From the NCBI RefSeq assembly GCF_003018115.1, contig NZ_CP027457.1: a stretch of DNA of 64,000 nt. One strand, written 5' to 3'. Shown one piece after another: positions 45,504-48,257 of this stretch. This stretch comes from Escherichia coli (GTDB lineage Bacteria > Pseudomonadota > Gammaproteobacteria > Enterobacterales > Enterobacteriaceae). The position numbers were made by a program, and so were the translations under genes. The stretch's first letter is position 1, and each line of letters begins with the position of its first letter. Below the pieces are notes generated by a model. The model saw only the letters and a program-made list of their open reading frames with translations. It did not search any database and had not been told where the DNA came from.

Positions 45504-46928
45504 ATGCAACATAAGTTACTGATTAACGGAGAACTGGTTAGCGGCGAAGGGGAAAAACAGCCTGTCTATAATCCGGCAACGGGGGACGTTTTACTGGAGA
45601 TTGCCGAGGCATCCGCAGAGCAGGTCGATGCTGCTGTGCGCGCGGCAGATGCAGCATTTGCCGAATGGGGGCAAACCACGCCGAAAGTGCGTGCGGAATG
45701 TCTGCTGAAACTGGCTGATGTTATCGAAGAAAATGGTCAGGTTTTTGCCGAACTGGAGTCCCGTAATTGTGGCAAACCGCTGCATAGTGCGTTCAATGAT
45801 GAAATCCCGGCGATTGTCGATGTTTTTCGCTTTTTCGCGGGTGCGGCGCGCTGTCTGAATGGTCTGGCGGCAGGTGAATATCTTGAAGGTCATACTTCGA
45901 TGATCCGTCGCGATCCGTTGGGGGTCGTGGCTTCTATCGCACCGTGGAATTATCCGCTGATGATGGCAGCGTGGAAACTGGCTCCGGCGCTGGCGGCAGG
46001 GAACTGCGTAGTGCTTAAACCATCAGAAATTACCCCGCTGACCGCGTTGAAGTTGGCGGAGCTGGCGAAAGATATCTTCCCGGCAGGCGTGATTAACGTA
46101 CTGTTTGGCAGAGGCAAAACGGTGGGCGATCCGCTGACCGGACATCCTAAAGTGCGGATGGTGTCGCTGACGGGCTCTATCGCCACCGGCGAGCACATCA
46201 TCAGCCATACCGCGCCCTCCATTAAGCGTACTCATATGGAACTTGGTGGCAAAGCGCCAGTGATTGTTTTTGATGATGCGGATATTGAAGCAGTGGTCGA
46301 AGGTGTACGTACATTTGGCTATTACAATGCCGGACAGGATTGTACTGCGGCTTGTCGGATCTACGCGCAAAAAGGCATTTACGATACGCTGGTGGAAAAA
46401 CTGGGTGCTGCGGTGGCAACGTTAAAATCTGGTGCGCCGGATGACGAGTCTACGGAGCTTGGACCTTTAAGCTCGCTGGCGCATCTCGAACGCGTCAGCA
46501 AGGCAGTAGAAGAGGCGAAAGCGACAGGGCATATCAAAGTGATCACCGGTGGTGAAAAGCGCAAGGGTAATGGCTATTACTATGCGCCGACGCTGCTGGC
46601 TGGCGCATTACAGGACGATGCCATCGTGCAAAAAGAGGTATTTGGTCCAGTAGTGAGTGTTACGCCCTTCGACAACGAAGAACAGGTGGTGAACTGGGCG
46701 AATGACAGCCAGTACGGACTTGCATCTTCGGTATGGACGAAAGATGTGGGCAGGGCGCATCGCGTCAGCGCACGGCTGCAATATGGTTGTACCTGGGTCA
46801 ATACCCATTTTATGCTGGTGAGTGAAATGCCGCACGGTGGGCAGAAACTTTCTGGTTACGGCAAGGATATGTCACTTTATGGGCTGGAGGATTACACCGT
46901 CGTCCGCCACGTCATGGTTAAACATTAA
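45504..46928 (+). CDS. patD: gamma-aminobutyraldehyde dehydrogenase
   Basis: 474-aa aldehyde dehydrogenase (ELGGKAP, catalytic Cys in GQDCTAACR). Confidence 0.9.
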
Positions 46929-46967
46929 GGATAATATTGCAGATCGTAAGAGTATGAGATGATCTTG

Positions 46968-47002
46968 CGTACTGTCAGAGCACTGATTTCTCTGACAGTA
47001 CG
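46968..47002. terminator. 12-bp perfect-stem hairpin between convergent patD and yncL (CGTACTGTCAGA ... TCTGACAGTACG)
   Basis: Read from sequence; lacks a clear U-tract, so function as terminator is tentative. Confidence 0.35.
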
Positions 47003-47024
47003 TGCTGCGTGCAAAATCACTACA

Positions 47025-47120
47025 TCAAATAAACCAGCCAAATCTCATAGAGATAAGAGTAAACAAACCAACAGCAGCAAAGACATTTATCAGTACTACA
47101 GTTCTACTGGAAACATTCAT
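47025..47120 (-). CDS. yncL: small single-TM membrane protein (31 aa)
   Basis: Minus strand reads MNVSSRTVVLINVFAAVGLFTLISMRFGWFI with AGGTGG RBS; below the ORF-track cutoff. Confidence 0.65.
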   Translation of the reverse strand: MNVSSRTVVLINVFAAVGLFTLISMRFGWFI

Positions 47121-47314
47121 TTTTGCCACCTTTTATCATTGCCCCTATGTGTATAGTACGGGTTAAGAAAATCCGCAATAATACTCATTCTGAAGATGGA
47201 TAAGGGCAAGTTGCTGTTTGATGATTTTTTCTCAAACCGGTGAAAAAACTTGATGCACGTCAAAAAATGACGCATATTTGCGCGCGTTTTATTCATCTGG
47301 CTGGACGCCCGTAC

Positions 47315-47488
47315 ATGTCTCTCTATCAACATATGCTTGTTTTTTATGCGGTTATGGCAGCAATCGCATTTCTTATCACCTGGTTTCTTTCTCACGATAA
47401 GAAACGCATCCGTTTCTTAAGCGCCTTTCTGGTGGGGGCAACATGGCCGATGAGTTTCCCGGTGGCGCTGTTGTTTTCACTGTTTTAA
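47315..47488 (+). CDS. ortT: orphan toxin OrtT (TisB-like membrane peptide)
   Basis: 57 aa MSLYQHMLVFYAVMAAIAFLITWFLSHDKKRIRFLSAFLVGATWPMSFPVALLFSLF; hydrophobic. Confidence 0.75.
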   Translation: MSLYQHMLVFYAVMAAIAFLITWFLSHDKKRIRFLSAFLVGATWPMSFPVALLFSLF

Positions 47489-47573
47489 ATCTTACTCACT
47501 GGCTTGACGGCACCACGCAGACTTATATCATTTGGATGAATCGATAAATTTCACAAGTGGCTAAGGAGAAAGT

Positions 47574-47807
47574 ATGTCGCATCTGGATGAAGTCATCGCG
47601 CGCGTGGATGCCGCGATTGAAGAGAGCGTCATTGCCCATATGAACGAATTATTAATCGCCCTGAGCGATGACGCGGAGTTAAGTCGGGAAGATCGCTACA
47701 CCCAGCAGCAGCGTTTGCGCACCGCTATTGCTCATCACGGTCGCAAGCATAAAGAAGATATGGAAGCGCGCCATGAACAGTTAACCAAAGGCGGCACCAT
47801 CCTGTGA
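47574..47807 (+). CDS. ydcY: small conserved protein of unknown function
   Basis: 77-aa ORF with AAGGAG RBS. Confidence 0.7.
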   Translation: MSHLDEVIARVDAAIEESVIAHMNELLIALSDDAELSREDRYTQQQRLRTAIAHHGRKHKEDMEARHEQLTKGGTIL

Positions 47808-48257
47808 TTAAAATGAGCGTCTGGCTACCAACCAGGCGCCAACCACAAGTAAAATTGCGCCACAAATTGGGCCGAACAACGCCCGTAGTGGTACGCCATG
47901 ACTGCGGAAGATATCCAGAACCAGACCGCCAATCAGCTGGCTGGCGACCAGTACTGCAATAGTTGTCGCCGCTCCCACATTCTGATATCCGCTGATACTG
48001 GCGAAGACAAAAAACGATCCCAGCAAGCCAGGTATAAGTGTCCACCAGCGCACGCTGGACACCAGTTCGCCAAACCCCGCCATACCTTGTTTAAACCATA
48101 AAATAGAAACAAAGAGCACAATCCCCACCAGTGAGTTCAGCAACATGGCGATGAGAATGGTAGAGGAGGTCTGGGTGATGCGCACCATCAGCGTGTTCTG
48201 GACTACCAGACCAATTCCGGCGGCAATCAAAAAGGCAAGGGTGAGCGACTGATTCAT
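47808..48257 (-). CDS. ydcZ: DMT-superfamily inner membrane protein
   Basis: 149-aa polytopic ORF; 4-nt overlap with mnaT upstream suggests an operon. Confidence 0.8.
   Translation of the reverse strand: MNQSLTLAFLIAAGIGLVVQNTLMVRITQTSSTILIAMLLNSLVGIVLFVSILWFKQGMAGFGELVSSVRWWTLIPGLLGSFFVFASISGYQNVGAATTIAVLVASQLIGGLVLDIFRSHGVPLRALFGPICGAILLVVGAWLVARRSF

Follow-up and report, generated by a model that had tools for sequence, protein, structure and literature searches.

The closest described system to the locus considered here is the orphan toxin OrtT of Escherichia coli K-12, the product of ortT (ydcX), as characterized by Islam, Benedik and Wood in 2015. OrtT causes membrane damage and a drop in ATP, and its toxicity is lost when the ATG start codon is changed to ACG (PMC4344625). 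No antitoxin was found for it in a genomic library of 2.9-fold coverage, neither GhoS nor YdcY neutralises it, and in a clone carrying both of the spacers that flank ortT the toxicity was not reduced (PMC4344625). The same authors reported that ortT is induced by SHX, mupirocin, and trimethoprim, which they credited to predicted sigma-E and sigma-H promoters, and recorded a two-fold induction by heat (PMC4344625). OrtT shares a number of features with GhoT, the toxin of the type V GhoT/GhoS system, namely a length of 57 aa, membership of the family PF10753, and the residue Phe38, which is needed for toxicity and conserved in OrtT. The genetic organization of the two differs, with ghoS lying directly upstream of ghoT in K-12, whereas ortT is adjoined by yncL and a DUF2526 gene instead.

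The divergently transcribed neighbour, yncL, has also been studied by experiment. YncL is a small membrane protein in the work of Hemm et al. of 2008 and 2010, as cited in PMC12542507, where the 2010 study is also quoted for higher YncL levels upon heat shock and in minimal medium. In E. coli the protein has been shown to be present and active, and it is described as a stress and stationary-phase protein which, when made, causes partial membrane depolarisation and nucleoid condensation (PMC12542507); it is cleaved in vivo by RseP (PMC10470546). In Salmonella, in which the gene is known as STnc1110, a yncL-lacZ translational fusion is expressed and depends on sigma-S (PMC5437024). The region between the two genes is, in addition, bound by FNR in vivo: Myers et al. 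found a strong "yncL/ydcX" FNR peak by both ChIP-seq and ChIP-chip, in all data sets (PMC3688515), with a PWM score of 14.54 for the site (PMC3688515 Tables S5 and S6). This peak belongs to Category 5 of that 2013 study, which comprises FNR-bound sites with no expression phenotype, and in glucose minimal medium the expression of ydcX was neither FNR- nor O2-dependent (PMC3688515 Table S9). The FNR target was listed there as "Indistinguishable", with other regulators and start sites given as none known, and the ydcX data are found in the supplements, the main text being without ydcX (PMC3688515).

The locus analysed here lies in a stretch of 64,000 nucleotides of E. coli DNA (contig NZ_CP027457.1), referred to below as the window, to which all coordinates refer. 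Its RefSeq gene order is patD, yncL, ortT, and ydcY, and the interval of interest (47025-47488) runs exactly from the stop codon of yncL through the stop codon of ortT. E. coli F9792 is 100% identical to the window over positions 46850-47650, and this segment is carried by 5415 of the 5426 complete E. coli genomes. The upstream neighbour, patD, encodes gamma-aminobutyraldehyde dehydrogenase (45504-46928, plus strand; an open reading frame annotated by RefSeq and matching the equivalog TIGR03374 at 1036 bits) and is convergent with yncL. Downstream of ortT lies ydcY (DUF2526; 47574-47807, plus strand; annotated by RefSeq, Pfam PF10735, E=1e-46), which possesses a promoter-like site of its own at 47504-47531, as indicated by a promoter scan, as well as a strong Shine-Dalgarno sequence (SD) with an anti-SD duplex of -9.1 kcal/mol; ydcZ and mnaT, both on the minus strand in the RefSeq annotation, follow further downstream. 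The GC content is 0.36-0.38 over approximately 47000-47300, compared with approximately 0.52-0.58 in the flanking genes. An Rfam scan of 46700-47900, with E values up to 1, returned zero matches and hence no known sRNA or riboswitch.

The minus-strand gene is yncL (47025-47120), encoding a 31-aa peptide with the sequence MNVSSRTVVLINVFAAVGLFTLISMRFGWFI, which is annotated by RefSeq and matches the NCBIfam equivalog NF000537 over residues 1-30 of 30 with 72.5 bits (cutoff 35), while PF28073 (YncL) is attached to its homologues in precomputed annotations. It is 97% identical to the K-12 peptide, from which it differs by one substitution, and it is the same gene as that represented by NF000537, PF28073, and Salmonella STnc1110, with no difference. 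The peptide conforms to the family pattern of 30-31 aa, one transmembrane segment, and MNVSS...RFGWF ends: its hydrophobic core spans residues 7-25, with R6 and R26 at the edges of this single segment, and M1, V3, S4, S5, I11, N12, R26, F27, G28, and F30 are invariant in an alignment of the peptides. The ATG is served by a good SD, AAGGTGG (47126-47132, minus strand), which is located 5 nt ahead of it and forms an anti-SD duplex of -7.2 kcal/mol; CCACC, on the opposite strand, is conserved in the spacer alignment described below.

The plus-strand gene, ortT (47315-47488), is annotated by RefSeq and encodes a 57-aa, two-TM, GhoT-like orphan toxin, 100% identical to OrtT of K-12 and 63% identical, without gaps, to K-12 GhoT, which is likewise 57 aa long. 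The Pfam model PF10753 (Toxin_GhoT_OrtT) recognises the protein with 96.9 bits (cutoff 22.1, E=8.3e-28), and residues 4-57 align with positions 1-55 of the 55-position model. The protein has a hydrophobic window at residues 5-27, a charged loop from H27 to R33, and F38; the second transmembrane segment, at residues 34-54, is a prediction cited in PMC4344625, and this stretch stays below KD 1.6 in a 15-residue hydropathy window. The comparison with the K-12 gene shows that nothing differs: the neighbours are again yncL and ydcY, and the spacers again measure 194 bp upstream and 85 bp downstream. The genes adjoining ortT are the divergent yncL and ydcY, with no ghoS-type endoribonuclease gene among them, and because of this OrtT is to be regarded as a member of the GhoT/OrtT family that stands outside any type V system; for a type I arrangement at ortT, no support came from the Rfam scan described above or from the published clone of both flanking spacers (PMC4344625). 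Its ribosome-binding signal is a weak SD-like GGA (47303-47305, plus strand), situated 9 nt ahead of the ATG and conserved in the spacer alignment described below, with an anti-SD duplex of only -3.3 kcal/mol.

For the assessment of conservation, 80 OrtT loci were fetched, with one genome per species, and the counts given here are over 81 sequences. The 57-codon frame of ortT is intact in all 81, with a pN/pS of 0.18, and yncL (a 31-codon ORF compared in 25 sequences) has a pN/pS of 0.19 with 9, 6, and 27 variable sites at the first, second, and third codon positions, and third-position variation is dominant. By these measures, yncL and ortT are under purifying selection across genera. The ortT start codon is TTG in seven Kosakonia copies.

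Both genes are thus already annotated, have curated families, and have already been studied by experiment, and most of what had been proposed for them from the letters of the sequence alone agrees with this record. The original prediction of a 31-aa, single-TM peptide on the minus strand (yncL) and of a 57-aa orphan toxin on the plus strand (OrtT), both in an AT-rich context, is borne out by the RefSeq annotation, the family matches, and the base composition described above. It had further held that both genes are lost or mis-called by a length-filtered ORF track, and such is the case: the mechanical ORF list carries yncL only as a 34-aa GTG ORF (47025-47129), which falls under the default 60-aa filter, and ortT as an 82-aa GTG ORF (47240-47488). 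The two experimental checks that it suggested, a translation signal for either frame and the toxicity of ortT, are answered by the literature, in which translation of both genes is documented (PMC4344625, PMC5437024, PMC12542507) and OrtT is toxic as a protein (PMC4344625).

In an alignment of Escherichia, Citrobacter, Salmonella, Intestinirhabdus, and Pluralibacter, the spacer between yncL and ortT resolves into two conserved islands with approximately 70 variable bases between them, and each island resembles a promoter for the gene nearest to it. The candidate yncL promoter (47150-47178, minus strand), read on the minus strand, consists of a -35 element TTGCGG (47178-47173), a 17-nt spacer, and a -10 element TATACA (47155-47150) preceded by a C at -13 (47156). 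These blocks are invariant or near-invariant across Escherichia, Citrobacter, Salmonella, and Intestinirhabdus, and also at a divergent locus, L090. The -10 element with its C at -13 would be of the sigma-S type, in agreement with the sigma-S dependence reported for Salmonella. The heptamer TACTCAT at 47183-47189, considered as a NarL site, was dropped, being unconserved in the alignment.

The candidate ortT core promoter (47250-47286, plus strand), proposed from conservation and spacing, comprises a -35 element TTGATG (47250-47255), a 17-nt spacer, a -10 element CATATT (47273-47278), and a GC-rich discriminator GCGCGCG (47280-47286), all within the island AAAACTTGATGCACGTCAAAAAATGACGCATATTTGCGCGCG. 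This block is near-invariant well beyond the genera that have yncL, in the midst of variable intergenic sequence. Promoters with a GC-rich discriminator are, as a rule, expected to be under negative stringent control. The ortT discriminator is, in this respect, awkward to set beside the published induction of ortT under stringent conditions (PMC4344625). The block also resembles a sigma-32 promoter, in the form CTTGATG-14-aCgCATaT; this likeness fits the sigma-H promoter predicted for ortT and its two-fold induction by heat (PMC4344625). Both promoter assignments are proposals drawn from consensus fit and conservation, and so are the transcription start sites that they imply, which would lie near 47285 on the plus strand for ortT and near 47143 on the minus strand for yncL. 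A sigma-70 consensus scan, at its thresholds, called neither of the two small-gene promoters, and the output of the promoter and terminator scans consisted of the ydcY promoter-like site, one site in the hairpin described below, and two weak terminator-like matches, one within ortT and one within its promoter, in numbers such as arise by chance.

The 3' end of yncL is followed by a stem-loop (46968-47002, minus strand), which starts 23 nt and ends 57 nt past the stop codon, and in which 46968-46980 pairs with 46990-47002 in 13 perfect pairs around a 9-nt loop, with one additional G-U pair in the plus-strand RNA. It folds with -21.6 to -22.5 kcal/mol (z -4.1 to -4.5; none of 200 shuffled sequences was as stable), and a strong stem-loop is present approximately 20-35 nt after every yncL copy examined. 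When 23 distinct 3' regions were aligned, 84% of the cells were paired, compared with 35-52% with the partners slid, and seven of the 15 pairs were altered on both sides, as with U-A in Escherichia against G-C in Citrobacter; because the pairing exceeds that of the slid controls and changes occur on both sides, the covariation indicates that the structure is under selection. The hairpin, moreover, travels with yncL. The interval that separates yncL from patD contains an insert of 0.3-2.8 kb in several Citrobacter species and, in some strains of E. coli, an inserted gene for a CatB-related acetyltransferase; in both instances the hairpin remains beside yncL, and it is therefore not a patD element. 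Most probably it forms the 3' end of the yncL mRNA or its terminator, while it can also arise in RNA that reads through from patD.

The original prediction had described this element as a 12-bp hairpin that suggests tight transcriptional insulation; its coordinates were exact and its stem one pair short, and the function attributed to it has fared less well. The view that the hairpin is an intrinsic terminator acting in both directions, by which patD is tightly insulated from the spacer with the small genes, would find encouragement in the strong and symmetric stem, which folds equally well from both strands and stands between convergent genes, in its conservation with compensatory changes, and in the hairpins of Salmonella and Pluralibacter, which bear the T-runs typical of intrinsic terminators. 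Of the hallmarks of such a terminator, however, the E. coli hairpin has the stable stem-loop and lacks the U-tract: on inspection of the sequence, neither strand has a U-tract behind the stem in E. coli or in Citrobacter, and a terminator consensus scan does not call the hairpin. In addition, ExcludonFinder reports that the convergent transcripts of patD and yncL overlap in at least 50% of 58 MG1655 transcriptomes (PMC12288877), and the association of the hairpin with yncL across inserts of up to 2.8 kb would not be looked for in an element that serves to insulate patD. Since E. coli has no U-tract and published transcripts overlap, tight insulation is unsupported, and we regard the bidirectional terminator as doubtful in comparison with a 3'-end element belonging to yncL.

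The -35 element of the candidate ortT promoter coincides with an FNR box, TTGATGCACGTCAA (47250-47263), which matches TTGAT-N4-ATCAA at nine of ten positions and is the sole match to the FNR consensus in the 64-kb window. In 65 of the 81 loci the pattern TTGA-N6-TCA precedes the ortT ATG by 61-67 nt; the box is a perfect consensus in 25 of them, and 63 of these 65 box-bearing loci have CATAnT after a spacer of exactly 17 nt. The occupancy of the box in vivo is known not only from the peak of Myers et al. but also from the FNR ChIP-chip study of Grainger et al., which reported the very same motif for a peak at ydcX (PMC1802558). Because the box keeps a fixed distance from ortT also in genera without yncL, the comparison of genomes points to ortT, and not yncL, as the target of FNR, and thereby favours one of the two genes that the Category 5 study had left "Indistinguishable" (PMC3688515).

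With CATATT as the -10 element, the centre of the box falls near -29, at which position bound FNR would occlude RNA polymerase, and repression is therefore the more likely effect of FNR at the ortT promoter. In CFT073 lacking NO detoxification and grown anaerobically with nitrate, ydcX is up 11.85-fold, together with cyoA-D and sdhD (PMC5320621); this rise is consistent with a relief of FNR repression by NO, and co-activation by NarL/NarP and FNR would fit it equally. We tentatively suggest, as a possible mode of control for which the odds are short of favourable, that holo-FNR on the box and -35 element silences ortT anaerobically and that stress sigma factors gain access to the promoter once the FNR cluster is lost to O2 or NO.

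Most near-consensus FNR boxes that overlap a -35 element are class II activating sites, and the ortT box is a near-consensus one in just this position, so that FNR could conversely serve as a class II activator of ortT, with the box centred at -41.5. The rise of ydcX in CFT073, in which fdnG rose as well under anaerobic nitrate conditions (PMC5320621), would likewise suit activation by FNR together with NarL/NarP, which is Category 3 of Myers et al. Such an arrangement would, however, set the start at approximately 47298 and need a -10 element near 47286-47291, where the sequence, GTTTTA, is poor and unconserved, and no convincing conserved class II -10 element was found 29.5 nt from the centre of the FNR box among the ortT upstream regions. 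It is CATATT, at exactly 17 nt, that is near-invariant, with the box centre near -29 and the occlusion of RNA polymerase that this entails, and wild-type expression is no higher anaerobically (PMC3688515). Activation from this site is accordingly unlikely in our estimation, and repression remains the reading that we prefer.

The divergent layout of the two genes raises the question of whether YncL and OrtT form a functional pair, in which YncL would, for example, act in the membrane to modulate OrtT or to counteract it, and which would explain the fixed arrangement. The start codons of the two genes are 194 nt apart here, and the ATG-to-ATG distance is 190-198 nt in Escherichia, Citrobacter, Salmonella, and Intestinirhabdus and 177 nt in Pluralibacter, and still 191 nt in the divergent lineage L090, in which YncL is only approximately 45% identical; this spacing is kept, in contrast to the two outer flanks, which are variable. 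YncL and OrtT alike affect the membrane potential (PMC12542507, PMC4344625), and the "UTR" clone of Islam et al. held only the first codons of yncL, so that YncL itself lay outside that assay (PMC4344625). Nevertheless, most of the genera sampled, including Enterobacter, Lelliottia, Leclercia, Kosakonia, Pantoea, and others, carry ortT with no adjacent yncL, and a profile search of representatives places YncL-family peptides at unrelated loci too, as in Lelliottia sp. WAP21, which has a YncL-family gene on the contig of ortT at a distance of approximately 540 kb. The library screen for an antitoxin mentioned above also came up empty (PMC4344625), and the conserved blocks of the spacer are two separate promoters with variable sequence between them. 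A constant linkage of yncL and ortT was thus rejected, ortT being often without yncL nearby and YncL-family members being found elsewhere. The linkage is lineage-specific and the promoters are separate; a functional pairing of YncL and OrtT is very unlikely.

That the true products are 82 aa from GTG 47240 (ortT) and 34 aa from GTG 47129 (yncL) is scarcely credible, even though neither extended frame is interrupted in this window, given that the ortT extension spans the ortT promoter, has no SD at its GTG (anti-SD +0.6 kcal/mol), and is interrupted by a stop codon within 25 codons upstream of the ATG in 63 of 81 loci, which makes the 82-aa ORF an artefact, that the GTG of the 34-aa ORF (47129-47127) sits inside the very SD that serves the yncL ATG, that the family models cover the short forms alone, and that mutation of the ortT ATG abolishes toxicity (PMC4344625). 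Both extended ORFs were rejected on these grounds, and the short starts, ATG 47120 for yncL on the minus strand and ATG 47315 for ortT on the plus strand, are the real ones; the same conclusion on the yncL start site has been published for Salmonella (PMC5437024).

Taken as a whole, the locus consists of two known genes for small inner-membrane proteins, which are very probably transcribed separately and divergently under the control outlined above. On the yncL side, transcription would begin at a sigma-S-type promoter, TTGCGG-17-cTATACA, translation proceeds from the good SD, and the mRNA would end at the conserved stem-loop. On the ortT side, control would be exercised at the level of expression, through a weak SD and through the promoter TTGATG-17-CATATT, which is deeply conserved and followed by a GC-rich discriminator, and whose -35 element would lie within the near-consensus box that FNR occupies in vivo.

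As both genes are annotated, family-modelled, and experimentally studied, the value of the locus for genome scanning is small, and its use is rather that of a control case: length-filtered ORF tracks drop or mis-start true small membrane proteins, and a careful reading recovers them. What is new here is the conservation of the ortT promoter and FNR box across genera, the covariation of the yncL hairpin together with a footprint of the sigma-S type, and the existence of unlinked members of the YncL family. The conserved FNR box offers a concrete and cheaply testable hypothesis for the silencing of a toxin that has no antitoxin. If the hypothesis is true, the yncL/ydcX FNR peak would represent a switch that acts directly on a toxin which depolarises the membrane, and that is conserved among the Enterobacteriaceae, and a sensor of O2 and NO at the promoter would explain why ortT has no antitoxin.

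Upstream of ortT (47315-47488, plus strand), which encodes a 57-aa GhoT-like orphan toxin, the promoter carries a near-consensus FNR box, TTGATGCACGTCAA (47250-47263), that overlaps the -35 element and at which FNR binding has been seen in published ChIP data (PMC1802558, PMC3688515). The distance between this box and ortT is fixed in 65 of the 81 loci compared, and these include genera that lack yncL, the gene for a 31-aa single-TM protein on the opposite strand. Within the same promoter block, our scan returned a weak terminator-like element on the minus strand (47270-47287), in which a T-run comes after a stem of 5 bp (ACGCG...TGCGT); the same bases form a small palindrome, CGCA-TAT-TGCG. 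This arrangement may be due to chance, or the palindrome may be part of the reason why conservation of the block exceeds the needs of a -10 hexamer.

On the other side of ortT, ydcY is preceded by a good sigma-70-like site (TTGACG-16-TATCAT, 47504-47531; 10/12 matches) and by a strong Shine-Dalgarno (SD) sequence, in keeping with the literature, which states that ydcY and ortT do not form an operon; the ydcY-ydcZ-mnaT block lies downstream of ortT in Escherichia only. As for the yncL-ortT spacer, the RefSeq locus tags on its two sides leave out one number in each of the two strains compared (loci L001 and L084; RS08185 to RS08195 in one, RS20930 to RS20920 in the other), which suggests that a gene call was once placed there and later withdrawn. 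The current RefSeq tables of these two loci show no feature between the genes.

The junction between patD and yncL contains a CatB-related O-acetyltransferase gene in some E. coli strains (in Combat13F7, L084:2396-3205, with its breakpoint near window position 46919) and an insertion of 0.3-2.8 kb in several Citrobacter species; in every one of these cases the hairpin that follows the yncL stop codon (46968-47002) remains beside yncL. Separately, one cluster representative (P0001, 82 aa) is a YncL that has lost its stop codon, its frame crossing the hairpin region and then running on antisense to the end of patD.

The yncL mRNA (47025-47143) was linked to the sRNA RprA in TRIC-seq and RIL-seq maps (bioRxiv 10.1101/2025.09.11.675593), was linked to KilS in another RNA-RNA interaction map (PMC8175672), and was raised about two-fold anaerobically in an hns stpA mutant (Myers 2013, Table S11; PMC3688515). 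Peptides of the YncL family (30 aa; precomputed Pfam PF28073) also occur at loci unrelated to ortT (positions 2501-2593 of L085, L086-L088 and L089). In one context the neighbours are thrS and a YniD-like small ORF; in another, near YoaK, a Transgly_assoc gene stands on one side and a CSS-motif EAL gene on the other; in the third the peptide gene separates an MCP gene from a GGDEF-EAL gene. In two of the three contexts the peptide is thus a neighbour of c-di-GMP enzymes.

The ortT 5' region, approximately 90 nt upstream of the gene, is different in Kosakonia (L017, L018, L019, L025, L034, L036, L037) and in Phytobacter and relatives (L051, L057, L059, L060, L064). No FNR box is present in this region, a strong SD (AGGAG) precedes ortT in both groups, and the Kosakonia copies start with TTG; judged from these sequence features, control of the OrtT toxin is predicted to be rewired in the Kosakonia/Phytobacter clade.
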